From: an uncultured Prevotellaceae bacterium | GTDB taxonomy: Bacteria; Bacteroidota; Bacteroidia; Bacteroidales; Bacteroidaceae | DNA length: 64,000 bases | Assembly: GCA_947166305.1 (NCBI GenBank) | Contig: CAMVDV010000009.1 | Span: 11,619-75,618, forward strand | Direction of reading: 5' to 3' | Part shown: positions 3,011 to 64,000 of the stretch, one piece after another | Layout of the letters: each line of letters opens with the position of its first letter | Numbering within the stretch: the first letter of the stretch is position 1 | Program-made: the position numbers and the translations under genes | The notes under the pieces: generated by a model | What the model was told of the DNA's origin: nothing | What the model saw: the letters and a program-made list of their open reading frames with translations, nothing else | Databases searched by the model: none

Positions 3011-4642
3011 ATGAGATTAAAGGCGACGGCCATCGTGCTGGCTTTCCTGACGACAGCAGGAGCATCAGCAGACATTGACAAAGCATTAGAAACCTTCGAC
3101 GAGCAGCCCGATGTGGCCACAGCCACTGGCTTCTTCGACGAACTCCTGAAGGAAGAATTCATCGACGAACAAGTTCGTTTCCCCATAGGCACACCCCCCG
3201 ACTCGCTGCAGCAGCAAGTGTGGTACTGGGCAGCCGAATGGTTCTACGACAAACAGCAGTATGAGAAGGCCGAAGCCTACGCCCTGAAAGCCCTGCCGAA
3301 GTACCATCCGTCCAATCCCGAGAAGGCCGACTGCCTCAACACCCTTGGCTGCATCTACGTCCGCCTCAGCGATTTCAAGCAGGCGGCAAGCTATGCCAGG
3401 CAAAGCGTGGAGATAGAAATGCAAGGAGGCAACCACGACCGCATATCCTCGAGCCTCAACACCCTGGCCGGCATTTACATGGCAGGATATCAGGCTAAAG
3501 AGGCAGAAGACATCATCCTCCAAGCCCTCGCACATGCAGAGCAAGCCGACAATCCGGGCCGTAAGGCTATCATCCTGGGCATGGCCTCAGAGATTTATCA
3601 CACGCTGGGTAACGACGAGAAGGCACTCTCCTACGCTGAGCAGGCCATCGAGCTGGAGAAACAACTGAACCGCCCCCAAAAGCTCCTGATACGCCTTTCG
3701 CAGAAAGGGTCGGCACTGCTCGGCCTTCATCGCTACGAGGAGGCAGAAGCCATCTACCGCCAGATAGCTCCACAGCTCAAGCAGATGGGCGACTATCATT
3801 CCTACGCTATCGCCCTCAACCACCTCGGCATGTCCCTTCTCTGCCAAGAACGGCAGCAGCAGGCCATACCTTATTACAGGGAAGCCGCCGACCTCTTCTC
3901 GCGCATGGGCGACCTCTACAACGAAATCCATTCGCACCGAGGACTCTACGAAAGCTACTGGGAACTGAATCCCGACTCGGCGAAGATAGAACTCGACCGC
4001 TTCGACTTGCTCAAGGACTCCCTCTACACGCACTCCACCGCCGAGGCTCTGTCGCGCTACAACGCCGAATTTAGCAACGACGTGTTGCAGCAGGAGAACA
4101 AGGAAGTGAGGCAAGCGCATCGCCGCACCATCATCCTCGGCACAGTCCTCTTGCTGCTGATAGCAGTCGGTGCGTGGCTTGCCATTCTCTACAGCCGTCG
4201 TCGCTGGCAGAGGCAGATGCAGGAACTGATAAAGGAAGTGGAAAAGACCCTCTCTAACTCTTCCTTAAAGAGAGAGGACTCAGCGAAGGAACTCCCCCTA
4301 AAGGGGGTCGGGGGGTCTGAAGAGTCTTTCCTCATGCGCGTCATCGAAGCCGTCAACGAAGCGATGCCTCAGGGCAACTTCGGCGTAGAGCAGATTGCTG
4401 CCGAGCTTGGCATGAGCGTGCAGACATTCCGTCGCCGTCTCTTTGACGCCGCAGGCGAGTCCCCGAAGTCCTTCATCCAAGCCATTCAGATGGAGCGAGC
4501 CGTAAAACTCCTTTCCGAAAAGCCCGACCTTTCCATCTCGCAGGTGGCAAATCTCTGCGGTTTCGACGAGGCAAGTTCCTTCGGACACACCTTCCGACGC
4601 ATCTACGGCTGTTCGCCTTCCGAATACAAAAAAACGCGATGA
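3011..4642 (+). CDS. Membrane-anchored TPR-repeat sensor with C-terminal AraC-type HTH
   Basis: Signal-like N-terminus, TPR-like repeats, TM helix TIILGTVLLLLIAVGAWLAILY, then an AraC HTH (SVQTFRRRLF..., ISQVANLCGFDEASSFGHTFRRIYGCSPSEY). Confidence 0.85.
   Translation: MRLKATAIVLAFLTTAGASADIDKALETFDEQPDVATATGFFDELLKEEFIDEQVRFPIGTPPDSLQQQVWYWAAEWFYDKQQYEKAEAYALKALPKYHPSNPEKADCLNTLGCIYVRLSDFKQAASYARQSVEIEMQGGNHDRISSSLNTLAGIYMAGYQAKEAEDIILQALAHAEQADNPGRKAIILGMASEIYHTLGNDEKALSYAEQAIELEKQLNRPQKLLIRLSQKGSALLGLHRYEEAEAIYRQIAPQLKQMGDYHSYAIALNHLGMSLLCQERQQQAIPYYREAADLFSRMGDLYNEIHSHRGLYESYWELNPDSAKIELDRFDLLKDSLYTHSTAEALSRYNAEFSNDVLQQENKEVRQAHRRTIILGTVLLLLIAVGAWLAILYSRRRWQRQMQELIKEVEKTLSNSSLKREDSAKELPLKGVGGSEESFLMRVIEAVNEAMPQGNFGVEQIAAELGMSVQTFRRRLFDAAGESPKSFIQAIQMERAVKLLSEKPDLSISQVANLCGFDEASSFGHTFRRIYGCSPSEYKKTR
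4246..4317. repeat. Multi-hairpin element copy inside the TPR/AraC CDS (72 bp, in frame)
   Basis: Reads gaccctctctaactcttccttaaagagagaggactcagcgaaggaactccccctaaagggggtcggggggtc and encodes TLSNSSLKREDSAKELPLKGVGGS. Confidence 0.85.
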
Positions 4643-4745
4643 AATGGGCAGAAAAGTGAATCTTCGGGTTCACTTTTCTGCATTTTGGAAGAAAATAACA
4701 AGTATTTTGGAAGATTTTATCAACTGACCCTTGGCAAAAAATTCG

Positions 4746-4753
4746 TAATTTTG
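4746..4753 (+). promoter_or_regulatory. -7 box TAATTTTG upstream of the sORF and giant gene
   Basis: Matches TAnnTTTG, 51 nt upstream of the ATG at 4804. No such box lies directly upstream of 5039. Confidence 0.45.
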
Positions 4754-4803
4754 CAACAGGAATCTATAATTTTCTTCATTTCTGCATTACTCATTTTTCT
4801 GTC

Positions 4804-4977
4804 ATGGCACTCTCAGAAAAACAACGAGCCGCTCACCAGCTCGCATCAGACTACCTCAGCTTCCTCGCTCAGCAGGAGGCTGTGGTGGACAGACTTTTCT
4901 GTCGCAAGTGGAAGGAAATAGAGCCTCAGATAGAACAACTCATCGAACGGAAGATCAAGGAATACCTCGCCTCGTAG
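4804..4977 (+). CDS. Candidate small protein, 57 aa (MALSEKQRAAHQLASDYLSFLAQQEAVVDRLFCRKWKEIEPQIEQLIERKIKEYLAS)
   Basis: The ORF is below the 60-aa track cutoff and was found by reading the sequence. GC and GC3 rise sharply at the ATG compared with the AT-rich flank. It looks helical and ends 62 nt before the giant gene. Confidence 0.45.
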   Translation: MALSEKQRAAHQLASDYLSFLAQQEAVVDRLFCRKWKEIEPQIEQLIERKIKEYLAS

Positions 4978-5038
4978 CGAAGCATCCTTGCCTATACATT
5001 ATTAATATATATATAATAAACAATAAAACTACACCACT

Positions 5039-8000
5039 ATGAAGACAAACCTAACATTTGCGAGAATCACAATGGCCCTGGCCATTGCATTGTTCCCGTT
5101 CTTGAAGGCCAATGCCTGGGATTGGGAGTGGACCGACACGTGGGGCGAAGCCGTTGCCTGGTGCGAAGAATGCGGAAACGAGTACATTATCTACGCCGAC
5201 AACTCTGCCGAGGCCGAGTCCGCTGCCGAAGACCTCTTCTGCAGCGACTGCGGCTGCTGCTCGGAAGATGTCAACATGGACTGCTATCGCGAGCACCATT
5301 GCCAGTTCTGCGATGGATGCATCGACAATGGAGAGTACCACGTAGGCATCTACAATCTGTTTGACGAGTACATACACTACGATTGTGCCATCGAACTCAT
5401 CGAATCCGGCGACGTCGATGCCTGCAGCTATTGCCACGAACTCTTCGGCGAAGGCGCCGTAGAGTGTGACTGCGGTGTGGGCGACAAGCACTGTACGGAC
5501 TGCTCCGAATCGAAGTGCGAGAAGTGCGGCAAGTGCTTGCTCATAGCCGGTGACGAGACCGATGCCGCATCGGGCGACGCCTGCATCGACCATGGCATTT
5601 GTGGCGAGTGCATGCCCGATGCCTCTGCCGATGACCAGACGCACTGTCGTATATGCTTCAACTGCGACGAGGACATCTGCGATGAGTGCGGCATGTGCGA
5701 GAGCTGTGCCGTATACGAGGAGCACTGCCCCGAATGCGGCTACTGCTTTGGCGACGAGGTGCAATGGTGCGCCGACGATGGGGAGCACTGCGTCAACTGT
5801 TGTAAAGACAACGGATGGTTATGCCCGGCTTGCGAAAGATGCGTGGACGGCGCAGGCATCTACATTTGCGACGACTGCGGCATGTGCGAAGAGTGCTGCC
5901 TGAGCGAGTCTGAGGGAGAAGGCTGCATACATGGCATTTGCACCGCCTCCTCAGAGTTCTACGACCACCTCTGCCCCGAGTGCGGCGAGTGTCCTCAGGA
6001 CGAGGAATGCGACTACTGCGGTCTCTGCATCAACTGTCAGACTGGCTATCACTGCGAGCACGAGCTCTGTCCAGACGGCTCTGAATGGGACGACCACGTC
6101 TGCCCCGACTGCGGTGAGTGCTTCGACGACGGCGAACTATGCGAGTTCTGCGGCCTCTGCGAAAACTGCCGCGAGCACTGCGAGCACGACTTCTGTCCTG
6201 AGAACGACGATGACAGCGACCACTTCATCTGCAACCAGTGCGGCGACTGCTTCGAGGCCATAGATCGTTGCGACGAGTGTGAGCTCTGTCTCGTCTGCTG
6301 TGACGACAACACTCAGTCCATGGGCTGCGACCACGGCTTCTGCGTCGTGAGCGACGACTTCGAAGAGCATTGGTGCTATGAGGACGATCAGTGCCTTGAA
6401 CTCTGCGAGCACGATCCGGAATGCACCCATTCGAATGTCACCTTGGACTACGCCATCAACGGCAATGCCCACTGGCGTGTCTGCGAAGACTGCGGACTCA
6501 CCGTCGACAAGGCACAGCACACAGGCGGCGAGCCTGTCACGTTGACGTCACCCAACGCTGCCACGCACACCAATGGCACAGCTCAGGTGAACTGCATCGT
6601 CTGCAACTACAAGATGGGCATCGTCCCCATCCCCTACGTTGAAGCACCCGCCGACGGCAGTCCGTACATTATTATACAGCCTACCGACTACACAGGCAAG
6701 ACCAACACCGCAGCATGGAAGGAGGAAGAAGATGACCGCTACGCCACCTTCAAGGTGAAGGCAGGCGGCGAAGGACTCTCCTATCAGTGGTATTGTCGCT
6801 ACGGCACCGGCAGCGGCACTAAACTCAGCGACGACAGCTACACACTAGGCACGCAGACGCCGACGCTCAAGACGCTGGTTTATGGCGAAGACTGCGAAAG
6901 GCAGAACCGCAACATCTATTGTATAGTAAGCAACAGCAAGGGCAGCGTCACCTCCGACGCCGCCTACTTCAAGGCAGAACATGTCTTCGGGCGCTACACC
7001 AAGAAGGACAATGAAACGCACGAGAACCACTGCTTCGGCGAAGGATGCAGCGTCGTGAAAGCCACCTCCAAGCACCGCTTCACGGAGTGGACGCTTGTAC
7101 GTCCTGCCACATCCTCCGAGACAGGATTGCGCGAGCAGCAGTGCATGGACTGCGCTTACAAGAAGAGCGAGAGCATCCCGATGGTTGAGCCCGACCACGT
7201 CCACAGCTACGACATAGCGAAGTACAATATGTCGCAGCACTGGTTCGTCTGCGCCTGCGGCATTGCCGGCCCCGATGCTGCCGTCGACCATGTATTCGAT
7301 GAGAGCGAGGTGGTTACCCCGGCAACCGAGACAAAGAGGGGCGAGAACAGGATTATCTGCAGCGCCTGCGGCTTCTTCAAGACAGAGAAGACCGACAAGC
7401 TGCCGCACGTACATGACTGGTACACGTTCGGAGAAATAAGTATTGTCTTGCCAAACGGTCATTCGGGTCCCGACCCGAAGAAGGGCAGCTACGGACCGAA
7501 CTCGCACACCATCAAGTGCAAGGGCTGCAATGAGAAGAAGACCGACCGACACGTTTGGGGTATGTTTGAATGCATGAGGGATGCCAAGGTTCAAGGCAAC
7601 GACACCATCGCCGGAAGGATTGTGCGCTACTGTGATATATGTTCCTACAAGGAAGAAAAGTTCTATCCCCTTGGCTCATGGCCCATCATGATTGCAGGCG
7701 GCACAGCTTACAAGGGACTCACTAACAGAGCTGGTCAGGTGATAAAATGGATTCCTGCCGCTTATGCCAAGAAGGGCGACAAGATAGAAGTTGCTTACGA
7801 TGCGCTTGCTGCCAGGTCGCTCGGGGACAATCAGCCTCAGAAGTTCGTAGAGTGGGTGGACGGCGCAAGCTGGATCGGCGAGACGAACATTCCTTGGGAC
7901 AATGGTCGGAGTAGCATCGACCTGCCTCGCCTTACCTTCCGCCTGAGCCGTACTACTCGCCGATATGGCTTCACGATGCCCGACGGCCCGGCCACCATCT

Positions 8001-9631
8001 TTGCCGTCACCGAGGCATGCGACCACAGCGGCAGCACGAAGCAAACCGCTCGCGTGGAGCCTACTTGCAGCAGCCACGGCTACGAGCCCAGCACGCTCTG
8101 CGCTGACTGCGACGAGGTTCTTGAGGAAGGCGCACGCATTCCTGCACTTGGGCACGACCTGCCCAGCACGCCTATCGCAGGAACCGAAGTCGTGGAGTAC
8201 TGCACGACATGGGTTCAGGATTATAATCAGTATGGAAAGCCGAACACCGCTACGCACGGCTACACGGGCGACTTCCTCTGCAACCGTTGCGGCCAGACGG
8301 TTAAGGGCGAGCCGACGCCCCTCCGCCATGGGAAACACGACAAGAACAATCAATACATAAGGCCTGGATATATTTGGACTAGCTATCAGAAATGGGTGGA
8401 GGCGACGAATCCCCCCACCTGCACCAAGGCTGGATACGAGGATGATCTCTATTGCATCTACTGCAACAAGCTTGTTCAGAAGGGCGAGCGCGTAGAAGCC
8501 CACGGGCATGACTGGGAGTCATGGTACGTAGTGCGCGAGGCCACGACGAAGGTGAAGGGCATGGAGCAGCGCGTCTGCGCCTACGACTATTCGCACGTCG
8601 AGACACGCATCACTGACTACAGCGGTCCGGACTACACGCTGAAGCCCGAAAGGCAGAAGCTCCGCTTCGAATGGACCTACGGAGAGCCTGTTCCGTCGCA
8701 GACCATCACGTTCAAGTCCACTGGCCGCGACAGCATCGGTTCCATTGAGTATGCCGAAGAGCCCAACGGTTACCTCGACGTGACCGTGGACGGCATGACC
8801 ATCACCGCCAAGCCTAATATCGACAATGTAAAATGGGAACGTAGCGACATGGAATACGACGTAGTAGTGACAGACCTTCTCACACCGGCAAACGAGACCA
8901 TCGAAAGCTTCACTGTTCCCGAGATTAAAGCCACCTGCATCATCAAGAAGACGCCCGAGAAGTACTTGCTGACCGTGGAAGACGGCTTGGCCACGACCTT
9001 CACCATGAGCAGACCCGAGTGGACTTACAGCACGGACAGGAGCAACATGCTGAAGGTGCGCGGCGGTGAGTTCGTAGAGCTGGAGCCTGAGGACGAATGG
9101 AAGCATGACTTCCTGCGTTGGGAGGTGATAAAAGGCTCCGACGACATACAGGAGGATGTGCATGAATCCAGGACGAAGAATACACGCTTCGTCATGTCGC
9201 CTGCCGACGTCACCATCCGCGCCATCTACAGGAAGAACGCTCCGACCATGAAGTTCAAGCAGACGGAAGTGACGGCAAGCGTGGAAGAGCCCTTCAAGGA
9301 GCCTGCACTCATCACGATACCGGGCAAGCTGCCTGTCACCTACAGCAGCTCCGACGAGAGGGTTGTACGGGTGAATCCCAAGACTGGCACCGTATCCTTC
9401 ATGGGAGCCGGCACCGCCGTCATCACGGCGACCTCTGCCGAGACCAACCACTATGCTTCCTCGGCAACGTCCTACACGCTCATCGTGCCGCAGGACTTCA
9501 TCACAGGAATAAAGACCCTCTCCGGCTCTCCCTTAAAGGGAGAGGGCATGTTCAACACTGGCGGCCAGCGCGTCGGCGACAGTTACCGTGGCATCGTCGT
9601 GACGAAGAACAAGAAGGAACTGAAGAAGTGA
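5039..9631 (+). CDS. Secreted 1530-aa cysteine-rich repeat protein with a C-terminal Big_2-like Ig domain and a short T9SS-like tail
   Basis: Signal peptide MKTNLTFARITMALAIALFPFLKANA. About 80 Cys fall in residues 42-462 as CxxC modules, with further His/CxxC modules after that. A Big_2-like segment (VTYSSSDERVVRVNPKTGTVSFMGAGTAVITATS) precedes the tail MFNTGGQRVGDSYRGIVVTKNKKELKK. Confidence 0.85.
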   Translation: MKTNLTFARITMALAIALFPFLKANAWDWEWTDTWGEAVAWCEECGNEYIIYADNSAEAESAAEDLFCSDCGCCSEDVNMDCYREHHCQFCDGCIDNGEYHVGIYNLFDEYIHYDCAIELIESGDVDACSYCHELFGEGAVECDCGVGDKHCTDCSESKCEKCGKCLLIAGDETDAASGDACIDHGICGECMPDASADDQTHCRICFNCDEDICDECGMCESCAVYEEHCPECGYCFGDEVQWCADDGEHCVNCCKDNGWLCPACERCVDGAGIYICDDCGMCEECCLSESEGEGCIHGICTASSEFYDHLCPECGECPQDEECDYCGLCINCQTGYHCEHELCPDGSEWDDHVCPDCGECFDDGELCEFCGLCENCREHCEHDFCPENDDDSDHFICNQCGDCFEAIDRCDECELCLVCCDDNTQSMGCDHGFCVVSDDFEEHWCYEDDQCLELCEHDPECTHSNVTLDYAINGNAHWRVCEDCGLTVDKAQHTGGEPVTLTSPNAATHTNGTAQVNCIVCNYKMGIVPIPYVEAPADGSPYIIIQPTDYTGKTNTAAWKEEEDDRYATFKVKAGGEGLSYQWYCRYGTGSGTKLSDDSYTLGTQTPTLKTLVYGEDCERQNRNIYCIVSNSKGSVTSDAAYFKAEHVFGRYTKKDNETHENHCFGEGCSVVKATSKHRFTEWTLVRPATSSETGLREQQCMDCAYKKSESIPMVEPDHVHSYDIAKYNMSQHWFVCACGIAGPDAAVDHVFDESEVVTPATETKRGENRIICSACGFFKTEKTDKLPHVHDWYTFGEISIVLPNGHSGPDPKKGSYGPNSHTIKCKGCNEKKTDRHVWGMFECMRDAKVQGNDTIAGRIVRYCDICSYKEEKFYPLGSWPIMIAGGTAYKGLTNRAGQVIKWIPAAYAKKGDKIEVAYDALAARSLGDNQPQKFVEWVDGASWIGETNIPWDNGRSSIDLPRLTFRLSRTTRRYGFTMPDGPATIFAVTEACDHSGSTKQTARVEPTCSSHGYEPSTLCADCDEVLEEGARIPALGHDLPSTPIAGTEVVEYCTTWVQDYNQYGKPNTATHGYTGDFLCNRCGQTVKGEPTPLRHGKHDKNNQYIRPGYIWTSYQKWVEATNPPTCTKAGYEDDLYCIYCNKLVQKGERVEAHGHDWESWYVVREATTKVKGMEQRVCAYDYSHVETRITDYSGPDYTLKPERQKLRFEWTYGEPVPSQTITFKSTGRDSIGSIEYAEEPNGYLDVTVDGMTITAKPNIDNVKWERSDMEYDVVVTDLLTPANETIESFTVPEIKATCIIKKTPEKYLLTVEDGLATTFTMSRPEWTYSTDRSNMLKVRGGEFVELEPEDEWKHDFLRWEVIKGSDDIQEDVHESRTKNTRFVMSPADVTIRAIYRKNAPTMKFKQTEVTASVEEPFKEPALITIPGKLPVTYSSSDERVVRVNPKTGTVSFMGAGTAVITATSAETNHYASSATSYTLIVPQDFITGIKTLSGSPLKGEGMFNTGGQRVGDSYRGIVVTKNKKELKK
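9514..9546. repeat. Partial multi-hairpin element (first hairpin) inside the giant CDS tail
   Basis: Reads gaccctctccggctctcccttaaagggagaggg and encodes TLSGSPLKGEG in the same phase as the other coding copies. Confidence 0.75.
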
Positions 9632-9726
9632 CGCCAAGGAAAGTCCCATTCTCCATCACCCAAAGTGGTGGGGGAGGGGACTTCCGCACGAAGACCCCCT
9701 GACCTCCTTTAGGGGGAATTCAGAAC

Positions 9727-9805
9727 ACCGCACGCGGGGATTGGCATCGCCGCACGCGGAAATGACAAACGCCGCACGCGAGAATCGCAATCTCCGCGTG
9801 CGGCG
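9727..9805. repeat. 22-bp-period tandem array, CGCCGCACGCG family (~3.6 units)
   Basis: Reads accgcacgcggggattggcat/cgccgcacgcggaaatgacaaa/cgccgcacgcgagaatcgcaat/ctccgcgtgcggcg. The last unit is inverted. Confidence 0.9.
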
Positions 9806-9814
9806 TTTCTTTTT
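9770..9814 (+). terminator. Intrinsic terminator of the giant gene, formed by the last two array units
   Basis: CGCCGCACGCG-loop-CGCGTGCGGCG followed by TTTCTTTTT. Confidence 0.65.
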
Positions 9815-9857
9815 CACCTTTTCACTTTTTCACCTTTTAGAGAGGGTCTTTACCTCT

Positions 9858-12412: not shown

Positions 12413-12714
12413 GGGATAATTAAAGAAAATGGCAAGAACTGAGGAAGAAAAATGCTAAAATGCTTGCATAATCCGTCAAGAATGCCTAAATTTGCATTAT
12501 CAAATAAGTCCGAGATGGTCTTGGAGCGTCAAGACATTGACATCATAAGGGCGTGCTGGTCAGATCGGGATACTCATCAATTTACACTTCATTACCGAGA
12601 AATGTTTCGTATGCTAATGGCGTGCCATCCCATTCGTGGTTAGGTGGATTACAAAGGCAGCGAACCCTCAAAACCTGTTTTTCGGAGTTTCATCACATCG
12701 CCAGTGCGCCCCTT

Positions 12715-13821
12715 TTATTTTCCCTTCAACACGTGTTCCACTTCTTCGTCGCTGTCGGTCAGGCAGAGGATGAGGTTTTTGTATGTACCGTCGTCGACGA
12801 GCCTCATGAGCAAGGGCCAGATGGGTATTTTCTCTGTCCAGAAGTGTGTGTCGAGGAATATCATTGGCGATGCATAGCCGAAGGTGAGGTAGTGGTTCTG
12901 CACTGCCTCCTGGAAGATTTCCTGCAGGGTTCCGGCGCTGCCGGGTGTGTAGATGATGCCACCCTTGGCGATGGTGAGGATGCCGTCCTCGCGGATGCTG
13001 TTGTCGAAGTACTTTGCGATGTGTGTGGCGAAAGGCGTGGATGGTTCATGTCCATAGAGCCAAGTGGGGACGCCGAGGCTTGTGTAGCCCAGATTGGGGT
13101 ACTTGTTGTGTACTTGCCAAGCGGTGGAGAGCCAGAGAGGGTGAGTGTAGAGCGGTGCAACGCGCAGCATGTCGAGCGCTTCCTGCAGTTCGTCCGAGCT
13201 TCTTCCGGCCATCCATGCGCCCAGATGTGTTGCCTCCATTGCCCCCGGGCCTCCGCCGGTGATCATGAGGAAGCCTGCCTCGGTGAGTCGTTTGCTGAGC
13301 TTTGCCACCATTTCATACGAGATGTCGCAGCGCGAGATGCTGTGGCCGCCCATCACTCCGACGAGCCTGTGTTCGTCGAAGTCCTCAAGGAAGTCGTTCA
13401 GACAGTCTGTGATGGAGTGGTCATGCAAAGCCCTTGCCAGTGTTTCCTTCACGTCGGTGGCGTGCTTTCCCTTCTTCAGGTAGTGTCGATAGACGCGTCC
13501 GTCGAAGCATTGTTCGTAGCTTTCCGGCTGGTCGGGACGGTAGCCTTCGTAGAGTTCTTCGGGCGAATAGAGGTGATTGGGAAAGTCGAATGTCTCGCCC
13601 ATGTTGGGGAGGAAGAGGCAATCCCTTGACCGTCGTTTGAGTCCCATCGGCAGTCGGCAGCTCAGGAAGAGGCATTCGCGATAGGTATGGGAGAGTGCCT
13701 GCTCGGGAAACTCCGTGAAGTCTGTGCTCTGGAAGGCAACGTGGCGGAGTTCCTCCTCGGGCTGTGCGAGCTGGCAGGACAGTTCCTGCTGGTTTCTTAT
13801 CTGTAGGTATTTGTCTTTCAT
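12715..13821 (-). CDS. LOG-family / PpnN-like nucleotide 5'-monophosphate nucleosidase family protein
   Basis: Motifs GGGPGAMEATHLGAW and TPGSAGTLQEIFQ (LOG PGGxGTxxE-like). Its start overlaps the smpB stop as TGATG. Confidence 0.75.
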   Translation of the reverse strand: MKDKYLQIRNQQELSCQLAQPEEELRHVAFQSTDFTEFPEQALSHTYRECLFLSCRLPMGLKRRSRDCLFLPNMGETFDFPNHLYSPEELYEGYRPDQPESYEQCFDGRVYRHYLKKGKHATDVKETLARALHDHSITDCLNDFLEDFDEHRLVGVMGGHSISRCDISYEMVAKLSKRLTEAGFLMITGGGPGAMEATHLGAWMAGRSSDELQEALDMLRVAPLYTHPLWLSTAWQVHNKYPNLGYTSLGVPTWLYGHEPSTPFATHIAKYFDNSIREDGILTIAKGGIIYTPGSAGTLQEIFQEAVQNHYLTFGYASPMIFLDTHFWTEKIPIWPLLMRLVDDGTYKNLILCLTDSDEEVEHVLKGK

Positions 13822-16855: not shown

Positions 16856-19800
16856 CTATCTCGTCAGGGAGAACTTCATGGTCATGCCGAAGTCCTGCGT
16901 GATGGTGGGATAGCTGCTGCTGGAGAGGAGTGGGGCAGAGCGTTGGCGGTCGTAGTAAAGGCTCAGCGTGACCATACGGCTCAGCGTGTAGTCCACCTGC
17001 GCGCTCGTCTTGAAGGCTTTGCTGCCGCTTGTTGCCTCGCAAAGGTTCGTCTGGAGGTCGCGCTTGATGGCGCTCTGGTTGCGGATGCTAAAGTCGAAGC
17101 GCAGGTTCAGGTCGTGGGCTATCTTCTGTCGGCCCGAGTTCTTTCCCCTGGCACCGCCTTGCCTGTCGTTGTTGTCGAGGTCGCCGTTCAGGTTGCCGGC
17201 ATTCCCCTTTCCCTTAGCCTTGCTGCCAGCCGCCACCTTCTCGCTGGCCTTCCGCAGTCGCAGCACGTCGCTCAGCCGGAAGTCATTGATCTTGTAGCCC
17301 CATCCGATGACGAAGTCCTTGGAACCCGTCTCCGTTAGCTGCGCACTCGTCATGCTCAGGTTGAGCACACGCGACGTCTTGTATTCCACCTTGGCGGTCA
17401 TGTTGTTGTTCAGCGTAGCGTTGATGCCGATGAGTGGCGAGAAGTTCTCGTTGATGCTGACGGTGCTGACGTCGAAGAGGCTGCCCGGCAGATAGCCGCC
17501 CGTCGTGGTGTTCTGCACGAAGCCAAGGCCTCCGCTGCCCATACACTCTATCCATGAGCTGTAGGAGTGGTAGGAGCCGACCGCATAGATGCTCTTGTAG
17601 GCATGGGTGAGGTTGACGCTCTTGAAGTGATCGCGCACCCATGGCAGATTACTCAGTCCCTTGTAGTTGATACTCCAGTTGGGCAGCATCTTCCAGAGCG
17701 ACGGGAAGATGTCGAGACCGCTGCCTCCTGCATAGGCATTGAGGAAGGCCGGCACCATGACGTCGGCACTGTACTTGTTCACGGTGCCGTTCTCGGGATT
17801 GAACGTGCCGCTCATGCCCGTGCCTTGCGGATAGCGTATGCCATGATAGCGGGCTTCGACGCGTTGCTGATAGACGTCGAGGTTCTCCTGGAACTTCTGG
17901 AACGTGCGGCTGTAGTAGCCGTTGTCGGCAGAGCCAATGCTTGCGAAGGCAGAGCCAATGCTGATGGTCGTCATGTTGAACGAACCGCTGTGCGTGGGCG
18001 GAGTGCCGTACATGTATTGAATACTCTTGTTCCTGTTGTCTGTCCGACTCATGTTGAGGTCGATCTTGAGGTCAGTGAAAGGCTCAAGCGTCATCTTCAC
18101 TTGCACGTCTTCCGTCTTGCTTGTCGTGGCGGGAGTCGCCACGCTGTCGCTGCCAAGAAGCCACCCTCGCTCCTTAGCCTTGTCGAGATAGGAGTCGTCC
18201 ACAAAGCCGAATGCAAAGTCGAGGCCCGGCGTGAAGACTCCACCCAGTTTCCTTTGTCCGAGCATGTCGCCCACGTCTGGCAGGAAGCCCGGCACGGAGA
18301 GGTTGTAGGTGTTGCGGTAGGTGACGCTCACGTTGCGCACCATCATCAGGAAGCGTGCCGCCGTCTGTGCCAAACCGTACCACTTCTGTTCCGAAAGTTT
18401 GGGCAAGGCAACGACATTGAGCCTTACGCTCGTGGTGTCGACCGGTGTCTTTACAATCTTGATGCTGTTCTCGTCAACCTTCTTGAACTTGATGTTGTAG
18501 GCAAAGCCACTGCTGTCGCGAGCCGTCACGCGGACGCGCTTCGACTTCTGGCCGTGGTTTATCACGAGATCGGAGTCGGGGAAGAGCGTAATCTCCTGCA
18601 CGAAGCCCTTGTTCTCTGGTTTCTTCTTGGTGCTGACGCCTGCCACGTTGCTCTGCTTGGTGGTTCCCTTCTGTCCTCTTGCCAAGATGCTGTCCACGGG
18701 TTCGCCTGTCTCCATCGATTCTTGCTCTGCTTTCTTGCGTGCATCCTTCTCCTTCTCCTTTTCCGCCTTCTTGGCTTTGTCCTCTCGCTCCTTTTCCATA
18801 CGCTTCTGATTAGCTCCGGCTCGGGCATTAGAGGCAGAGAATCGCTTGTTAGCCTCCTGCAGGAACTTGCTATGGTTGTAGAGTTTCTCGAGGTCAATCC
18901 TTCCGTTGATGTTGACGGTGCGCTGGGTGTTGATGTTGTTGCCAAGCGACGGACGTCCCTGACGCTCGGCTCCACGCTTCCAAGTGTAGTTGGCAGAGTA
19001 GGAAGCATCGGCAGATACCCAGTCGAGCACAGGAATCTTCTCGAGCGGAAGCTTGTAGCTTAGCTGCGTATTCTGCGTGTAGTCGAGCGGACGGCCAAAG
19101 TGTCGCAGGCTCATCTTCACGGAGTCCTTCCACGCTTCGTAGCGGTCGGGATAGAGGTCCTTGTTGATTTGTGTATAAGGCTCTTCAATCTCAGCCCTCG
19201 TGCCGCTCTGGAAGGAGAAGTGCAGGGCCTTGAAGATGTCCCACTTGAGCGAGAAGTTGCGGTTCCAAGTCCAGTTCTGACTGAAGGTGGCAGGCAGGGA
19301 TGAGAAGTCGCCAGGGTTTTCGAGGTCGCGCTCTTGAAGCTCGTAGTAGTTACGATTCATGTCGGTGGAGAACGTAATGCTCTGCGGCGCAAAGGCGAGG
19401 TTCTGTGCCTTGATGATGTCCAGCCATTTGCTCTTTCCCTTAAGGTTCTTGAATGGCTCCCATGACTTCCAGTTCGGGCTCCAGGAATAGTTGATGTTTG
19501 CCTTCCAGTTCAGTTCGCGTTCATAGACCGTCGTTTGCCCTTCCGTGTATTGTGTGGAACGACTGAAGCCGAAGGTGAAGTTGGCAGGGTCGTAGGGCAT
19601 GGGGTGCTTGGTGGAACTGATGTTGAGTCTTACACCATTGAAGGAGAGGTTCTTGTTAGTCTCCGTATGATTAGTCAGGCTTTTGAGTGAGTCGCGCTGC
19701 TGTTGGTTGGCAAGTGCGTCGAGGGCATCACCGAGGAGCATGTCGGTGTCGAAGGGATTGTACTTTGGCGAAACCTTCTCCTTACTATAACTATAGTACA

Positions 19801-22800
19801 TCGGCACGGTAAGCTTTGCCTTTTCGGGAAGGAGTCGGCCGAGGTCGAAGTTGGTGGTGATGGCATAGTTGAGGTTATCCTCGTTCTTTCGTTGTGCCAC
19901 ACTTTGCTCGATGCCGCCGAAGCCGGACGTTATCATCTTGGCCGTGGCGTTGACCGAGCCGAGGTCGCTCAGTTGTACTTGCAGGCTTCCCTGTGCTGCC
20001 CAACCGCCGTTGTTGCTGAATTCTTGCAGACGGAGTTCGTTGGCCCAGACCTCGATGCTTTTCGTCTTGCCGCTGTTGTTGCGGATGCCTATCATGATGG
20101 TCTTCACTTCGCCGAGCGTCGGGTTGCCCATGATGGAGATACGGTTGTTGGGATGATTCTCGTCGTAGGTCGTGAAGAGTCGGTTCATGGAAGCTATGCC
20201 GAGACTTGCTTGTGAGTTGCGTTGCTTCTTGAGGTCTGTGAAGAGGTCGAAGTTGATGTCGACCATATTCTCTGAAGGCCATACTGCCAGACAGCCTGCT
20301 GCGCTGTAGGTGTCGTAGTTGCCTTCGGGCGTAATCCTCAAGGGTACTTCGTATTCATAGTAGTTACTCTTGTAGTCGGAGCCAAGACGGATGAAGACGC
20401 TGCACTCGCCGTCGGCAGTGTTGGTGATGTTCTCTGCCAAAGCATTGGCATGGACATACATCTGCAGATGTTTGTACTGCCGCATGTCGTAGTTGCAGTT
20501 CTTGTATACAGCCTTGGCTTCGCTTCCTCCAAGGTTGCGTGCCACCATGCACATGGCTTGCTCGTTAGCCTCGACGAGTTGCGACTGCGAAGGGTCGGTG
20601 ATGCGCGTGATGCCGGGAGGCAACACATAGTTGACGGGCTGCTTGTCGTTGTTCTCTTCGATGCAGACGGTGCTGACTTCGAGTGTGCCGTTTCCTGTCG
20701 AAGCGACGTTGCCGTTGTAGAGCGGTTGCTGATAAGTCCTCCAGTCGCCTTGCACGAGGTCGAGGGTGGCGAGGCGGAGGATGGTTTCTTCCTCGAAGCC
20801 CGTCATGAAGATACGCATGAAGCGGATGCTTGTGAAGTCGCGGATGCTGCCTTCCTTGCTTTCGTATTCTGTGAGAGGGATGCGGAAGAGATACCATGTG
20901 CAATCTTCTGTGTTGCCGTTACGAAGCTTAACGCTTGCTATGCGCTTGTCGGCGATGTGGTTTTGTCCCACAACCATGTCTTCGGGACGAATGCTGACGT
21001 GGTACTGATAGTATTTCTCGTATTCGTTGAGCGTGTAGTCTTGATTGATGTCTTCCACGTCGGGTGTCGACTTCCATGCTGTCTCGTAGGATTCCGGACT
21101 CGTGTCGGAGTCTGCGCTGTTGCCTTGCGGCATGTTGATGCGCTTGTAGCGGTTGAGGATGGAGGTCTGCAGTTGGTCGAAGTCTGTGCCGCGATAGTAA
21201 TGATAGTTGTCGTTGGCGGGGTCATTGTAGAGGCTGTCATAGACTGCGGGCGACACTTTGCTTTGCATCTGTTGGAGGTAGTCGGTGTAGAGGCTGAAGT
21301 TGCGTTCTTCCTCATCGTTCAGTCCGTTGAGGCCGACATCTTGGCGAGCGCGTGCTCCTGCTTCGTTGTTGAAGGCATAAGTCACACTGCTGCTGTTGGG
21401 GATGCGTCCCCAATACCCTTCGGTGAAGTATTGTGGATTGCCATCGACAGGCATTCCGCTTTCAAAGTATTTCTTTCCGTCCTTCAGGATATCTTCGGAT
21501 ACTTCGCCGAGATTGAAATAGAGGTCTCCTCCGTGATTGCCCGGCTGGTTGCGTTTGTAGATGAAGGGATCCATCATCCAGAACTCGATGTATTGGATGT
21601 TCTGTGCCTCGAAGTCTGTGTTGTCGAGCTTGCGCATCATGCCGCCCCATGTTTCCTGCGGATGCTTGAGGTGTCCGTCCTGGTCAACATCTGTGGAGAG
21701 ATTGTATGCACCACGTTCTTTTGGATAGAAGGCGAGGTTGAGAACGTTCAGTCCCGTGGCGCTGGTGTAGTTGTTCTGCGACTTTTGTGGATAGAGCTCG
21801 CGCTCATAGACTTCGCGGACGTAGTGGCTCGAGAGTTGGTCGAGGTCGCTTTTGATGTGGCTGGGAGTGAGTGTACTGCTGCGTCGCGTGAAAATGGGAT
21901 CTACGTAGTACCAAGCCAGGAGCGAGCGGTTGTAGCCGTAGGCAGCGTCGCCCGTCAGCTTGCTTTCGGCAAACATGCTTGGTGTGCTCGACATGCTCCA
22001 ATAGGTTGGTTGCGTCAGACTGTTCTTGATGCTGCTGCTCTCGAAGTCGTCGAGGTAGGAAGCATCGCCTTGTACGCTGTGGTTCTGACCAGCGATGAGC
22101 TGTGCGAACTCTCCGTTGAAGGCGATGAAGCTGGGCTGTGTACACTGGATGAGCGGCAGTTTGTCGATGATGTTGGTGAGCCATTGGCTTTCTTTCTTCC
22201 AGCTGATGTGGAAGCCCCAGAGTGTGTTCTTCAGCGGTTCGTTGCCCATGCTCACCTTTGTTGTGAGGGGTTGTTCGCTGAGATACATCAGCGTGCCGCC
22301 CACGGTGAAGTTCTTGTTGATTTCGTAGTCAAGGTTCAGTCCGAGCATCGTCTTGCGTTGCATGCCGTAGGTGTCGTTGCTTTCCACTGAAGCGCTGATG
22401 TTCGTGCCTGCTTCGATGAGGCTTTGGTTGATGATCGTGACGCGCCCCATGTTGTAGTCCACCGTGTAGTCTGTGTTCTCGGTGAGTGTAGTTCCGCCGG
22501 CAGTGACGACAACGGAGCCTCGCGCCACGTTGGTCACGCCGAGGTCTATCTCTCCTGCATTCGTGCCTTTGTAACGGCCGGTGAGCATGAACTTGTCGTG
22601 TTCGGAGATTTGTTTAGCTACGGTCTTCGTGCTGTCGTAGAGTTCGCGGAAGCAATACTTGTTGGCGAGAGCCGGGTCGCCTATCCATTTGGCCAGGTGT
22701 TCGCCGAAAGGTTCTGCCACGGGGAAGATGATGCGTCCCTTGCTGATGGTGTAGCCTTCCACGAAGTCGAACTGGCCGTTGGGATGCGGATTGTTCTTTG

Positions 22801-24682
22801 CGTCCAGTCGGTCGAGGTTCATGGCCCTGATGAGGATGGTGTTCTTGAGCTTTTCTTCGGGCAGATAGCTCAGATAGACACCAGTGGAGTCGCTCTGGTA
22901 CTTGATGTCGAGGCGGAACTTGTCGGCCATCACTTTCTGAGTGCCGAGGTAATAGACGTTCTTCATCATCAGTCGCCAAGTGGGAAGTGCGGGGCTGCCG
23001 GTGGTTCCTTTAAGCAGTTTGACGAAGAGAGCCTTCGAGTTGTCGGTGATGTCGCTGGCAAATTCGCCCACTTGGTACGTTGTGCCCATGTAGGTGTACT
23101 CGTAGGCCACGGCCAGCACGTCGTCCACCTGCAGTGTGCTGGTAAGGCTGACGTAGCCAAGGGCATTGTTGACGGTGTACTCCGACGTAGAGAGCTTCCT
23201 GGCAGCCTGCAGCTTTTCGTAGTCGACGCTTCCGTAGAACTTGTTGATGCCGTCCAGTATGTTTGTGGCTTGCGATATGTCGCGGGCGTCGGCGTAGTCA
23301 GTGACCATACGCTCGTATTCCGTGTTCGAGCGGTTGCTCGGCACGTTGATGCCGGCGTTCGTCCAGAGTCCTGTATTATAGATGTAAGAGGGTTCGCCGA
23401 GGTCGGCCAGTGCGATGACGTTGCGGTTGTTCTCAGTCTTGCCGCTTTTGTTCGTGACCCAAATCTCCACGCGCTTGATGTTGATGCCGCTCGAGATGGT
23501 GGGCAGCGACTCCATGTTCTTGTCGTAACGCTCGCGGAAGAAGTGGGAGAGGAAGAAGTGACGGTTCTCTTCGTAGTTGGTTGCACTGAACTCAAAGTTG
23601 GTGGTCTGCGAGCCGCCCTTGCTGTTTACGCTGGAGCTGGCGCTCTTCTTCTGGCTGACTACGGACTGAATCTTCAGCTTGCCGAACTGTACGTCAGTGC
23701 GCAGACCGAAGAGGCTGCTCACACCTGAGACGAGGCTTATGTTCGAGGGGAACGATACGTTGCCGGCTTCGATGAGCTTGACGATTTCGTCTTCCTTGCC
23801 GTCGTATTTGAGTTTGAGGTTCTGGGCGTCGTAGTCGAAGGTGGCCTGCGTGTTGTAGTTCAGGTTCATGTTGATTTTGTCGCCCACCTTACCGTTGAGG
23901 CTGAGGTTGATCTTCTCGTCGAAGTCGAAGCCGATGGTCTTGCGCCTGGATGCAGCGAGGGCAGGATTGTTCACCTTCTTCGAGTTGATGCCCATCTTGA
24001 GCTCGGCGCTGCCTTGTGTCTTTATCTGCACACCGCCCGGGCCGAATATCTTTTCTGCAGGGCCGAGGTCGAAGTGCATGTCGGTGAAGTCGAACTTGTT
24101 TTTGCCTTCGGCTTCAAAGGCTTCTGCATTCTTCTGCCGCCAGTATTGCTGCATGCTGTTCTGCAAGGACCACTGCTGATACTCTTCGGGCGTCATCAGC
24201 AGGGGAGCGTTGATGAATCCCGTGGCAGTGCCGAGCGTATATCCAGACCTTCCTGGCAGGATGCTTCCTGATGAAGCTCCGGCTGCTCCTGTCTGCGACG
24301 AGCTTGACGATGAAGTGCTTCCGCCGCGGGTGCTGCTTGTCTTGGGCATAGAGCTTTGCCCGCCTTTTGTGCCCTGACCCTTTCCTGCACCGCCGCCTTC
24401 GCCTTCGGCGAGCGTGGTGCCAATGGTGTAGGTGTTGTCCTTTTCGTCGTAGATGACCTCGGTCTTCAGGTTGTCGGGGTCTTTCAGATCGGCTGTTTTC
24501 TTGCGGAGGTTCTTTGTGTTGTCGGCACCGGTCTTGCGTACGGAGTAGCGAGGTTTGCCGTCGGGCACAGTGTCAGCAGGTACAGACTGTGCCTGCCACC
24601 CTGTACCTACCATAGAAGGTGCTGCCGGCACGATGATACACAGCAGCACCACGAGAGCTAATATGAATTTGCGCGCGCTCAT
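16856..24682 (-). CDS. sprA: T9SS translocon protein SprA
   Basis: 2608-aa outer-membrane protein with a signal peptide, an N-terminal low-complexity G/S region, and size and sequence typical of SprA. Recognised by overall similarity from memory. Confidence 0.9.
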   Translation of the reverse strand: MSARKFILALVVLLCIIVPAAPSMVGTGWQAQSVPADTVPDGKPRYSVRKTGADNTKNLRKKTADLKDPDNLKTEVIYDEKDNTYTIGTTLAEGEGGGAGKGQGTKGGQSSMPKTSSTRGGSTSSSSSSQTGAAGASSGSILPGRSGYTLGTATGFINAPLLMTPEEYQQWSLQNSMQQYWRQKNAEAFEAEGKNKFDFTDMHFDLGPAEKIFGPGGVQIKTQGSAELKMGINSKKVNNPALAASRRKTIGFDFDEKINLSLNGKVGDKINMNLNYNTQATFDYDAQNLKLKYDGKEDEIVKLIEAGNVSFPSNISLVSGVSSLFGLRTDVQFGKLKIQSVVSQKKSASSSVNSKGGSQTTNFEFSATNYEENRHFFLSHFFRERYDKNMESLPTISSGINIKRVEIWVTNKSGKTENNRNVIALADLGEPSYIYNTGLWTNAGINVPSNRSNTEYERMVTDYADARDISQATNILDGINKFYGSVDYEKLQAARKLSTSEYTVNNALGYVSLTSTLQVDDVLAVAYEYTYMGTTYQVGEFASDITDNSKALFVKLLKGTTGSPALPTWRLMMKNVYYLGTQKVMADKFRLDIKYQSDSTGVYLSYLPEEKLKNTILIRAMNLDRLDAKNNPHPNGQFDFVEGYTISKGRIIFPVAEPFGEHLAKWIGDPALANKYCFRELYDSTKTVAKQISEHDKFMLTGRYKGTNAGEIDLGVTNVARGSVVVTAGGTTLTENTDYTVDYNMGRVTIINQSLIEAGTNISASVESNDTYGMQRKTMLGLNLDYEINKNFTVGGTLMYLSEQPLTTKVSMGNEPLKNTLWGFHISWKKESQWLTNIIDKLPLIQCTQPSFIAFNGEFAQLIAGQNHSVQGDASYLDDFESSSIKNSLTQPTYWSMSSTPSMFAESKLTGDAAYGYNRSLLAWYYVDPIFTRRSSTLTPSHIKSDLDQLSSHYVREVYERELYPQKSQNNYTSATGLNVLNLAFYPKERGAYNLSTDVDQDGHLKHPQETWGGMMRKLDNTDFEAQNIQYIEFWMMDPFIYKRNQPGNHGGDLYFNLGEVSEDILKDGKKYFESGMPVDGNPQYFTEGYWGRIPNSSSVTYAFNNEAGARARQDVGLNGLNDEEERNFSLYTDYLQQMQSKVSPAVYDSLYNDPANDNYHYYRGTDFDQLQTSILNRYKRINMPQGNSADSDTSPESYETAWKSTPDVEDINQDYTLNEYEKYYQYHVSIRPEDMVVGQNHIADKRIASVKLRNGNTEDCTWYLFRIPLTEYESKEGSIRDFTSIRFMRIFMTGFEEETILRLATLDLVQGDWRTYQQPLYNGNVASTGNGTLEVSTVCIEENNDKQPVNYVLPPGITRITDPSQSQLVEANEQAMCMVARNLGGSEAKAVYKNCNYDMRQYKHLQMYVHANALAENITNTADGECSVFIRLGSDYKSNYYEYEVPLRITPEGNYDTYSAAGCLAVWPSENMVDINFDLFTDLKKQRNSQASLGIASMNRLFTTYDENHPNNRISIMGNPTLGEVKTIMIGIRNNSGKTKSIEVWANELRLQEFSNNGGWAAQGSLQVQLSDLGSVNATAKMITSGFGGIEQSVAQRKNEDNLNYAITTNFDLGRLLPEKAKLTVPMYYSYSKEKVSPKYNPFDTDMLLGDALDALANQQQRDSLKSLTNHTETNKNLSFNGVRLNISSTKHPMPYDPANFTFGFSRSTQYTEGQTTVYERELNWKANINYSWSPNWKSWEPFKNLKGKSKWLDIIKAQNLAFAPQSITFSTDMNRNYYELQERDLENPGDFSSLPATFSQNWTWNRNFSLKWDIFKALHFSFQSGTRAEIEEPYTQINKDLYPDRYEAWKDSVKMSLRHFGRPLDYTQNTQLSYKLPLEKIPVLDWVSADASYSANYTWKRGAERQGRPSLGNNINTQRTVNINGRIDLEKLYNHSKFLQEANKRFSASNARAGANQKRMEKEREDKAKKAEKEKEKDARKKAEQESMETGEPVDSILARGQKGTTKQSNVAGVSTKKKPENKGFVQEITLFPDSDLVINHGQKSKRVRVTARDSSGFAYNIKFKKVDENSIKIVKTPVDTTSVRLNVVALPKLSEQKWYGLAQTAARFLMMVRNVSVTYRNTYNLSVPGFLPDVGDMLGQRKLGGVFTPGLDFAFGFVDDSYLDKAKERGWLLGSDSVATPATTSKTEDVQVKMTLEPFTDLKIDLNMSRTDNRNKSIQYMYGTPPTHSGSFNMTTISIGSAFASIGSADNGYYSRTFQKFQENLDVYQQRVEARYHGIRYPQGTGMSGTFNPENGTVNKYSADVMVPAFLNAYAGGSGLDIFPSLWKMLPNWSINYKGLSNLPWVRDHFKSVNLTHAYKSIYAVGSYHSYSSWIECMGSGGLGFVQNTTTGGYLPGSLFDVSTVSINENFSPLIGINATLNNNMTAKVEYKTSRVLNLSMTSAQLTETGSKDFVIGWGYKINDFRLSDVLRLRKASEKVAAGSKAKGKGNAGNLNGDLDNNDRQGGARGKNSGRQKIAHDLNLRFDFSIRNQSAIKRDLQTNLCEATSGSKAFKTSAQVDYTLSRMVTLSLYYDRQRSAPLLSSSSYPTITQDFGMTMKFSLTR

Positions 24683-53033: not shown

Positions 53034-53106
53034 TTATTTACTTTATTTACGATTTGACAATTTACAATTTACTATTTATTTACGATTTGTTGTTATTTAC
53101 GATTTT
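53034..53106. repeat. Simple tract (ATTTACGA/ATTTACAA type)
   Basis: Reads ttatttactttatttacgatttgacaatttacaatttactatttatttacgatttgttgttatttacgatttt. Confidence 0.85.

Positions 53107-60090: not shown

Positions 60091-64000
<3,910 letters not shown>

Follow-up and report, generated by a model that had tools for sequence, protein, structure and literature searches.

The DNA that we analysed, called the window here, is a stretch of 64,000 nucleotides (nt) from an uncultured Prevotellaceae bacterium (GenBank assembly GCA_947166305.1, contig CAMVDV010000009.1, positions 11,619 to 75,618), and the locus of interest in it consists of three open reading frames (ORFs) on the forward (+) strand: a gene for a membrane regulator (3011-4642, 543 residues), a small ORF (sORF) of 57 codons (4804-4977) and a gene for a giant cysteine-rich protein of 1530 residues (5039-9631). 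All coordinates are positions in the window unless a locus is named; L-numbers denote related loci from other genomes or metagenomes, and P-numbers denote homologous proteins of the giant. We consider it probable that the locus is a copy of a portable cassette of rumen Prevotella, in which the regulator drives the sORF and the giant gene through a pair of direct repeats and the giant is secreted to the cell surface. An earlier, sequence-only reading of this DNA had proposed three co-directional genes forming an operon of a small gene and a very unusual secreted protein under the control of a sensor. The ORF calls bore out the positions and common strand of the three genes, and comparison with related loci supports a sensor-regulated operon of this kind, in a broader form than was proposed: the conserved unit is not the trio but the regulator, the repeats and the sORF, with the giant as one of several interchangeable downstream genes.

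A genome scan with a profile of the giant returned 26 loci, all but one from metagenome-assembled genomes (MAGs) of the ruminant gut. A tblastn search of these placed a regulator next to a giant relative in just two, L024 and, as a variant of the hybrid two-component system (HTCS) type, L014, and we therefore rejected conservation of the trio as a whole. In L004, L006, L009 and L011, where the giant's closest orthologues lie, the sORF and the repeats have been kept and tblastn shows no regulator, and the orthologues in L002/L007, L005, L008 and L010 have no adjacent regulator, sORF or repeats. The cassette became apparent only after we had traced the sORF, and then the repeat motif. Loci reached through the sORF (L030-L032) have a regulator 76% identical to that of the window, the repeats and an sORF 82% identical, followed by a different protein of 1558 residues with leucine-rich repeats (LRR) that has only its last ~50 residues in common with the window's giant. 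Orthologues of the regulator, 61-77% identical, are found directly upstream of the repeats and a -7 promoter box at 11 distinct sites including the window, the ten others being L030, L035, L041, L042, L043, L044/L047, L045, L050, L052 and L054. The regulator ends ~45-50 nt before the distal repeat at most of these sites and ~250 nt before it in L052. Both the chromosomal flanks and the downstream genes differ among the regulator-bearing loci, and the regulator gene is the sole gene that consistently adjoins the repeats; three regulators picked by protein identity alone all had the repeats and the sORF downstream (3/3). The downstream genes encode the Cys-rich giant, members of a 'EYYGIKVGGVSVTSDN' LRR family, a BspA-like LRR protein, or lipoproteins of 147 and 177 residues. 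A single chromosomal site, between genes for a 2-hydroxyacid dehydrogenase and a radical-SAM protein, has four arrangements in related genomes: regulator, sORF and giant (L054); regulator, sORF and LRR protein (L030); regulator and LRR protein (L035); and the giant alone (L002/L007). The three genes of the window do co-occur in relatives, since the exact trio recurs in L041 and L054 and its layout is kept in the distant L024, so that the outcome which the sequence-only reading named as refuting it, genes that fail to co-occur in relatives, did not arise; several giant orthologues lack the regulator. Genes of the 'EYYGIKVGGVSVTSDN' LRR family were also seen in tandem with the Cys-rich giant (L006, 13312-17922; L014, 4511-7777) and with each other (L039, 6204-11279), so these two families of large proteins co-localise besides replacing one another.

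The gap between regulator and sORF is AT-rich, as had been noted (GC content 0.45 in 4501-5000 against ~0.57 in the flanks), and it carries an exact match to the Bacteroidetes-type -7 box, TAATTTTG, at the position first reported for it (4746-4753, +). Promoters read by the primary sigma factor of Bacteroidetes combine TAnnTTTG as the -7 box with TTTG at -33; in the window the -7 motif occurs more often than expected (37 matches, 15.7 expected). Four features had been missed: two direct repeats, a hairpin at 4648-4681, a degenerate second -7-like box and a short type IX secretion system (T9SS) signal at the end of the giant. The distal repeat ATTTTGGAAGAAAATAACAA (4682-4701, +), a putative half-site for the regulator, and the promoter-proximal repeat ATTTTGGAAGATTTTATCAA (4704-4723, +) share an invariant ATTTTGGAAGA core and have the form ATTTTGGAAGA-N9. 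When the intergenic DNA of the window was aligned with that of four related loci, the two repeats, including the invariant core of the distal one, and the -7 box formed conserved islands in otherwise diverged sequence. Scanning metagenomes with the repeat pair gave 18 sites, spread over 17 stretches of DNA, which make 24 distinct sites together with the loci already known. Across these the repeat consensus is TTTTGGAAGAAAATaACAA, and the repeats were met only together with the cassette. The proximal repeat starts exactly 41 nt before the start of the -7 box at every one of the 24 sites, as it does in the window, and the box itself is conserved as TAnnTTTGCAgCag in all 24. No TTTG is conserved at -33 in these sites, and the proximal repeat sits in that region. 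The two repeats are 22 nt apart in the window and 31-32 nt apart at other loci, a difference of about one helical turn, so that both sites would stay on one face of the DNA. The terminator-like hairpin that precedes the distal repeat (4648-4681, +; free energy, dG, -23 kcal/mol, z -6.8, none of 200 shuffles as stable) has a counterpart of other sequence at the equivalent place in L030, L035, L041-L045, L050 and L054, as would be expected of a terminator insulating the regulator transcript, and that transcript is probably ended by it. Autoregulation through the same repeats was considered and rejected, as the window holds no further copy of them save a half-site with a single mismatch (ATTTTGGGAGA, 53102-53112, +), which is intergenic and lacks a second repeat.

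The gap between the sORF and the giant gene is short and has no promoter box of its own, as the sequence-only reading had stated, with a length of 61 nt (4978-5038) rather than 62. It contains no exact TAnnTTTG and no stable hairpin (dG -2.1, z +0.6), and it holds the degenerate -7-like box CATCCTTG (4983-4990, +), which is intact as TATCTTTG in many related loci. The strong terminator reported to close the block lies beyond the giant (9767-9816, +; stem 9767-9808 followed by a T-run, dG -28.9 kcal/mol, z -5.7) and is common to a convergent malQ-like gene. At L035 the repeat promoter stands directly before the downstream gene with no sORF between them, and at L049 it likewise stands directly before that gene; this arrangement and the degenerate state of the window's second box make co-transcription from the upstream promoter the best reading for the window. 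At other loci the downstream gene may also have its own start, and we weighed the alternative that there are two transcription units, with the regulator controlling the small gene only and the giant expressed mainly from a promoter in the 61-nt gap. This we regard as unlikely. It would account for the TATCTTTG or TACTTTTG box that lies ~45 nt before the start codon of the downstream gene in 12 of the related sites scanned, for a sigma-70-like match (TTGCCT-18-TATAAT) at 4988-5017 in the window, and for the regulator and sORF forming a conserved pair whatever follows them. However, the box is degenerate in the window, no terminator separates the sORF from the giant, a repeat-controlled promoter directly precedes the downstream gene in L035 and L049, and sigma-70 hexamers are not the expected promoter type in Bacteroidota. 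For this last reason a sigma-70 promoter and terminator scan was set aside; it had also overlooked both real hairpins, whose loops or stems fell outside its limits. A further point against two units comes from copies in which the sORF has been precisely deleted, only its last ~8 codons (AAGATTGCGGAACATTTGGCGTCTTAAG) remaining, with the promoter before and the second -7-like box after them (L036, the first site of L040, L042, L043, L046 and L048): these retain the repeats and the first promoter before the downstream gene. An intact sORF is present on the same contig as some of the deleted copies (L034 for L036, the second site for L040, and L039 for L046).

Extra copies of the repeats and promoter on the same contigs, without an adjacent regulator, suggest that the cassette has a regulon, and the three contigs that carry two such regulator-less sites each fit a single regulator that acts on several operons. 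The best sign to be had that the regulator binds these repeats comes from L024, where a regulator only 44% identical, a giant 41% identical and an sORF of 41 codons are laid out as in the window. The intergenic DNA of L024 has a hairpin, two direct repeats 21 nt apart and a near -7 box, and the repeats differ in sequence from those of the window (TTTCACAAAATGATAAAAC and TTTTACGAAATGATAACAC), so that the regulator and the repeats beside it have changed together. We hold it improbable that the repeats are instead the site of another factor or part of a recombination-prone promoter cassette, conserved through recent duplication and cargo swapping. That explanation draws on the several repeat copies per contig, on the different genes found behind an identical upstream cassette at one chromosomal site (L054, L030, L035, L002), on the precise internal deletion of the sORF in some copies, and on a 12-mer, CGATGAAATGGG, at the regulator stop that recurs in reverse complement beside regulator-less copies, near AT-rich tandem repeats. 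A recombination scar would not predict what protein binding does, namely a 41-nt phasing fixed in 24/24 sites and a spacing that shifts by about one helical turn. Further points against it are the invariance of the repeats, in contrast to their diverged spacers, across regulators just 61-77% identical, the other repeat pair that takes this position beside the 44%-identical regulator, and the regulator gene alone being consistently next to the repeats. The 12-mer itself is conserved and overlaps the regulator stop codon in the window (4637-4648). Its reverse complement, CCCCCATTTCATCG, lies ~12 nt before the distal repeat at the regulator-less sites of L006, L034, L036, L039, L046, L048 and L049, where it is preceded by AT-rich tandem repeats (GTTCAAT heptamers and TTTTCATTTTTAA units), and it may serve for recombination or as a further site of binding.

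The regulator had been described as a sensor with tetratricopeptide repeats (TPRs), a transmembrane helix and a helix-turn-helix (HTH) of the AraC type, and Pfam and hydropathy agree. It has a signal-like N-terminus, TPRs at residues ~60-330 (TPR_12, E 4.9e-26), a transmembrane segment at residues 371-397 (4121-4201, +) that is the sole Kyte-Doolittle 19-mer peak above 1.6 (maximum 2.75), and an AraC/XylS-type DNA-binding domain at residues 436-543 (4316-4639, +; HTH_18/HTH_AraC, E 8.9e-23, with HTH_18 at residues 462-541). Scores of 80.8 bits for HTH_18 (cut-off 33.6) and 49.7 bits for HTH_AraC (cut-off 26.6) place it with the AraC/XylS double HTH proteins. Such proteins recognise specific repeated half-sites that overlap the -35 region or lie close to it, and the conserved, phased repeats and the co-variation in L024 suggest that this regulator may do likewise. 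A basic stretch (SRRRWQR) directly follows the transmembrane segment, and by the positive-inside rule the predicted topology is a periplasmic TPR region, one transmembrane helix and a cytoplasmic HTH. The closest solved relative of the HTH is PDB 12aw_A, a 'hybrid two-component system protein' (E 4.9e-13, residues 436-541), with AdpA, GadX and XylR as further PDB relatives; at E<=1e-20 the regulator as a whole has more than 1356 relatives, of which those with names come from rumen Prevotella or Bacteroidaceae MAGs. Pfam found no histidine kinase (HisKA, HATPase_c) or receiver domain in the 543 residues, which excluded the protein from the HTCS class; having no kinase, receiver or phosphorelay, it must pass its signal directly across one transmembrane helix. 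Membership of the SusR family was also rejected, the match to NCBIfam NF058541 reaching 35.3 bits against a cut-off of 480 and covering the TPR segment only.

The giant contains 111 Cys and 50 His, and a Big_2 domain near its C-terminus is its sole Pfam match. We found 155 homologues, with near full-length matches in Bacteroidales and Clostridia; those from rumen Clostridia are 33-40% identical and have SLH, dockerin or InlB-B-repeat modules at the C-terminus instead. This distribution is consistent with transfer between phyla, as judged from sequence similarity. The clostridial homologues in L021, L025, L028 and L029 are flanked by genes for a LuxR-type response regulator, a HisKA_7TM membrane protein and a HATPase_c protein, a sensor system of another kind, and L026 keeps the LuxR-type response regulator, making a dedicated sensor next to the giant gene a recurring theme. 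Among the closer homologues, two that are Bacteroidales by similarity, P0004 (64% identical) and P0024 (44%), end in a type I dockerin; in P0024 EF-Tu domains 2 and 3 come after it, which is unusual in a surface protein. A precomputed match to the family PF26918 is recorded on homologues.

A candidate Sec signal peptide, read from the sequence, occupies residues 1-26 of the giant (5039-5116, +; ...FLKANA followed by WDWEW), and the N-terminus is conserved in orthologues. It is followed by an acidic Cys/His-rich head (5117-6478, +, residues 27-480; 79 Cys, 23 His, 118 Asp+Glu, isoelectric point 4.05) in which nearly every Cys and His is invariant in 35-47 homologues and which has three clear copies of H-x-C-x2-C-x2-C-x5-6-C-x2-C-x2-C-x2-C. 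The head was modelled confidently by AlphaFold2 (mean predicted local distance difference test, pLDDT, 90.1) with little regular secondary structure, and a Foldseek search of the PDB with the model gave no match below E 0.15 (TM-score <=0.1), its weak neighbours being zinc-finger arrays. Next comes a stalk (6479-8638, +, residues 481-1200; 31 Cys, 24 His) of Cys/His beta modules with the pattern H-x-H...HW-x-C-x-CG...AT...G...C-x-x-CG and an immunoglobulin (Ig)-like domain. A stalk profile matched the IgA protease in PDB 9qa6_A at E 1.9e-14 over three stretches with the Cys and His in register. For the matching domains of Thomasclavelia ramosa, CTD2 and CTD4, a Zn-binding 'periscope' fold, as yet uncharacterised, has been described that holds the active domain away from the cell, the zinc in these reference domains being predicted only (PMC12415215). 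The C-terminal part consists of a beta-rich region, the Big_2 Ig-like domain (9245-9487, +, residues ~1403-1483) and a tail; the Pfam match to Big_2 (E 1.8e-4) falls slightly short of the cut-off in the giant itself and passes it in homologues, and the Foldseek matches of the AlphaFold2 model are to Big_2/Ig-like domains. The giant, earlier described as very unusual, is a predicted T9SS substrate, and a part of it matches a described, if uncharacterised, Zn-binding module.

The head is most likely a multi-zinc binding module, and the stalk modules are probably Zn-stapled. We think it improbable that the head is, instead, a device for redox chemistry or metal handling that fits the reducing conditions of the rumen, by way of Fe-S clusters, metal sequestration or extracellular electron transfer. 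Its extreme ligand density (79 Cys and 23 His in 455 residues), repeated C-x2-C-G-x-C and H-C-x-H-x2-C-P strings that recall ferredoxin motifs, the absence of a known fold match and a family so far confined almost wholly to gut and rumen anaerobes of two phyla would all suit such a device. However, a 4Fe-4S ferredoxin was rejected, as the head has no Fer4-type Pfam match at E<=0.01 and its spacings are not C-x2-C-x2-C-x3-C-P, and so was a multihaem cytochrome, with just one CxxCH among 47 CxxC. The signal peptide is moreover of the Sec and not the Tat type, so that the protein would cross the membrane unfolded, the adjacent stalk modules are predicted Zn sites, and the weak structural neighbours are zinc fingers.

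The last 41 residues of the giant (9506-9628, +, residues 1490-1530; GIKTLSGSPLKGEGMFNTGGQRVGDSYRGIVVTKNKKELKK) form a putative short T9SS signal, beginning within an IT/GI string at residues 1488-1491 and ending in KNKKELKK. In P. intermedia, short C-terminal domains (CTDs) are 40-55 residues long, are cleaved at T/GI and form a three-strand sheet, and they have motif B (Tyr...Gly and a basic residue), motif D (G-x-Y/N followed by Ile) and motif E (basic residues); cleavage sites have been confirmed for five of them and C-terminal glycosylation found on six cargo proteins (PMC11969387). We compared the tail by eye with the motif description in that paper rather than with its hidden Markov model. 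The consensus of the orthologue tails, DxITGI...YDLxGRK...GIYIxxGKKVLxK, fits motifs B, D and E fully, and unrelated downstream proteins of other cassettes end in the same tail and also fit. In an AlphaFold2 model of residues 1400-1530 the tail forms strands at model residues 105-107, 119-123 and 126-130 (pLDDT 73-85). The seven-strand sandwich of a type A T9SS signal was rejected, as the tail is too short for it and Foldseek found only Big_2/Ig-like domains and no T9SS CTD. A gene for the SprA/Sov translocon of the T9SS lies 7 kb from the locus (16856-24682, -; ORF of 2608 residues, TIGR04189, 2653 bits). We predict on these similarities that the giant is a T9SS substrate. Elsewhere in the window, a LacZ-type beta-galactosidase (60109-63702, -, 1197 residues from the first ATG) has a tail resembling a long CTD (...LYDLNGR...GIYIF...KKLKVKN) that matches no curated T9SS CTD model at E<=1e-3, and such models may miss the signals of this organism.

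The 57-codon ORF is, by comparison of its copies, a real gene under purifying selection. The median pairwise ratio of nonsynonymous to synonymous substitution rates (dN/dS) is 0.19, differences at codon positions 1, 2 and 3 number 195, 78 and 254, and reading frame and length are kept in all copies. A word-indexed search found just 3 clusters, and the family became visible only in a full HMMER scan, which gave 34 cluster representatives (E<=1e-3), 57-120 residues long with a single exception and having the conserved pattern EKQKAA..L..DYL..L..QE..V.R. A hydropathy scan found no hydrophobic segment in the product and a PDB profile search gave nothing below E 0.8. The sequence-only reading had recognised neither the small gene nor the Cys-rich region as a named family, and indeed neither matches Pfam or NCBIfam. 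That the three genes are unrelated neighbours, with the 57-codon ORF a chance ORF in a 5' leader, is scarcely credible, for although several giant orthologues lack both regulator and sORF, the cassette recurs in at least 11 distinct contexts and the sORF combines its low dN/dS and preserved frame with 34 cluster representatives. The small gene precedes unrelated genes and is dispensable in cis, which makes a regulatory role in trans likelier than a cargo-specific one; its most likely role, judging from where it occurs, is that of a soluble cytoplasmic partner that modulates the regulator in trans. A cargo-specific chaperone is less likely, because the protein precedes unrelated genes and has been deleted from some paralogous operons.

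Taken together, we picture the cassette as follows. Two regulator molecules, or a dimer, would bind the repeats at 4682-4701 and 4704-4723, the proximal repeat taking the place of the -33 element, and on a periplasmic signal the regulator would activate the -7 promoter at 4746-4753. The transcript would carry the 57-codon and 1530-codon genes and stop at the hairpin at 9767-9816. The giant would be exported by Sec and then by type IX secretion through its 41-residue signal and be anchored on the surface, where the acidic head of 455 residues with its ~100 conserved Cys/His would be held out on a stalk built of Ig-like and probably Zn-stapled beta modules; as a multi-zinc module the head may bind a ligand. 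The 57-residue protein, induced together with the downstream gene, would modulate the regulator in trans. Several observations weigh against parts of this picture. Ten distinct repeat-plus-promoter sites have no regulator within the recovered DNA. The giant can be expressed without the cassette, as its orthologues in L002/L007, L005, L008 and L010 imply. The second -7-like box TATCTTTG at many loci makes an own promoter for the downstream gene possible, so that the regulated product may be mainly the sORF. The tail of the window's giant has FNTGGQRV and RGIVV, with F and V at two positions that are Tyr in orthologues (motifs B and D), which leaves its efficiency as a signal uncertain, and the curated T9SS CTD models (TIGR04183/Por_Secre_tail) gave no match to the isolated tail even at E<=10. 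Finally, the AlphaFold models of the head carry no ligands, and its metal content is what we infer.

The locus varies on system types already known, and two of its parts are uncharacterised, the 57-residue protein and the multi-Cys head. Like the window's regulator, SusR of B. thetaiotaomicron is an inner-membrane one-component regulator specific to Bacteroidota, with a periplasmic sensor and a cytoplasmic DNA-binding domain, and its predicted sites are direct repeats on one DNA face (PMC3878776); the TPR region of our regulator also gave weak matches to the SusR model and to the precomputed TPR_SusR family. In contrast, the output domain of SusR is said to resemble no known family (PMC3878776) and ours is of the AraC type, the SusR repeats are spaced 67 or 77 bp rather than 22 or 32 bp, and SusR serves a glycan-utilisation locus, whereas the units here comprise a small gene and encode secreted surface proteins and small lipoproteins. 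For Bacteroides, dimeric binding to direct repeats on one DNA face has been predicted both for AraC-type HTCS and for SusR-like regulators (PMC3878776). The HTCS also share with the window the closest solved relative of its HTH, the HTCS fragment 12aw_A, but have the kinase, receiver and phosphorelay that our regulator lacks. A TPR-HK-RR-AraC hybrid stands beside a relative of the giant in L014. In ExsA-ExsD/ExsC, InvF-SicA and MxiE-IpgC an AraC activator works with a small soluble partner encoded with secreted proteins. The likeness to these systems is at most an analogy, as their small proteins are unrelated in sequence to ours, and here the regulator is membrane-bound and the predicted route is Sec plus T9SS.

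For the giant, P. intermedia's short CTDs resemble its tail in length, T/GI-type motif, motifs B, D and E (in part) and a single predicted three-strand sheet (PMC11969387), and differ in having Tyr where the window's tail has F in motif B and V in motif D; the host here is moreover an uncultured rumen relative of Prevotella. The IgA protease of T. ramosa shares homologous Cys/His beta modules, proposed to be Zn-stapled spacers, with the stalk through its CTD2 and CTD4 (PDB 9qa6; PMC12415215). Unlike the giant, it has an M64 protease domain, the distal domain of the giant being the Cys-rich head, and a Gram-positive cell-wall anchor in place of a putative T9SS tail in a Gram-negative cell. Papers on how the T9SS is regulated deal with PorXY-SigP control of T9SS component genes (PMC7712824). 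Among open-access texts we found none on this family of regulators, on the repeat motif or the small protein, or on the Cys-rich head.

Prevotella is a dominant rumen and gut genus, and to our knowledge little is known of how it chooses surface proteins for display; we likewise know of no cargo-specific regulator of the T9SS. The cassette would offer a concrete circuit, with a defined sensor, a 20-bp repeat pair of fixed geometry, a small partner protein and target operons, and would extend the logic of SusR and HTCS from glycan use to surface display. More tentatively, and with some doubt, we can imagine that the regulator, repeats and 57-residue protein constitute an undescribed portable expression switch for the T9SS repertoire, in which one sensor governs an interchangeable regulon and the upstream cassette and shared C-terminal signal act as recombination handles. 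The 57-residue protein would then be a new kind of co-regulator and the head a new extracellular multi-metal domain with up to ~25 sites, exchanged between rumen Bacteroidota and Clostridia and possibly chemical (metal or redox) rather than simply adhesive in function. The locus suggests a wider use of short T9SS signals, which to date have been described from P. intermedia alone, among its rumen relatives. The head, with a confidently modelled fold, ~100 conserved Cys/His, no solved relative and an occurrence in two phyla of one habitat, is a candidate for structural and gene-transfer work, and the regulon can be traced in metagenomes with the repeat motif and the sORF as simple markers.

Some minor features were seen at and around the locus. 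The sequence CGCCGCACGCG occurs in three direct copies, with starts at 9728, 9749 and 9770, of which the third is the 5' arm of the terminator, and G/C-run elements (GGGGGAGGGGAC...CCCCCTGACCTCCTTTAGGGGGA) lie directly upstream of these copies (region 9660-9781). A similar CCCCC...GGGGG hairpin follows an mltG-like gene (2861-2882). An Rfam scan of the whole window had no match inside the locus and identified a full-length Bacteroidales-1 RNA at 12549-12717 (+; RF01693, 128.6 bits), which has been suggested to be the 6S RNA of Bacteroidales.

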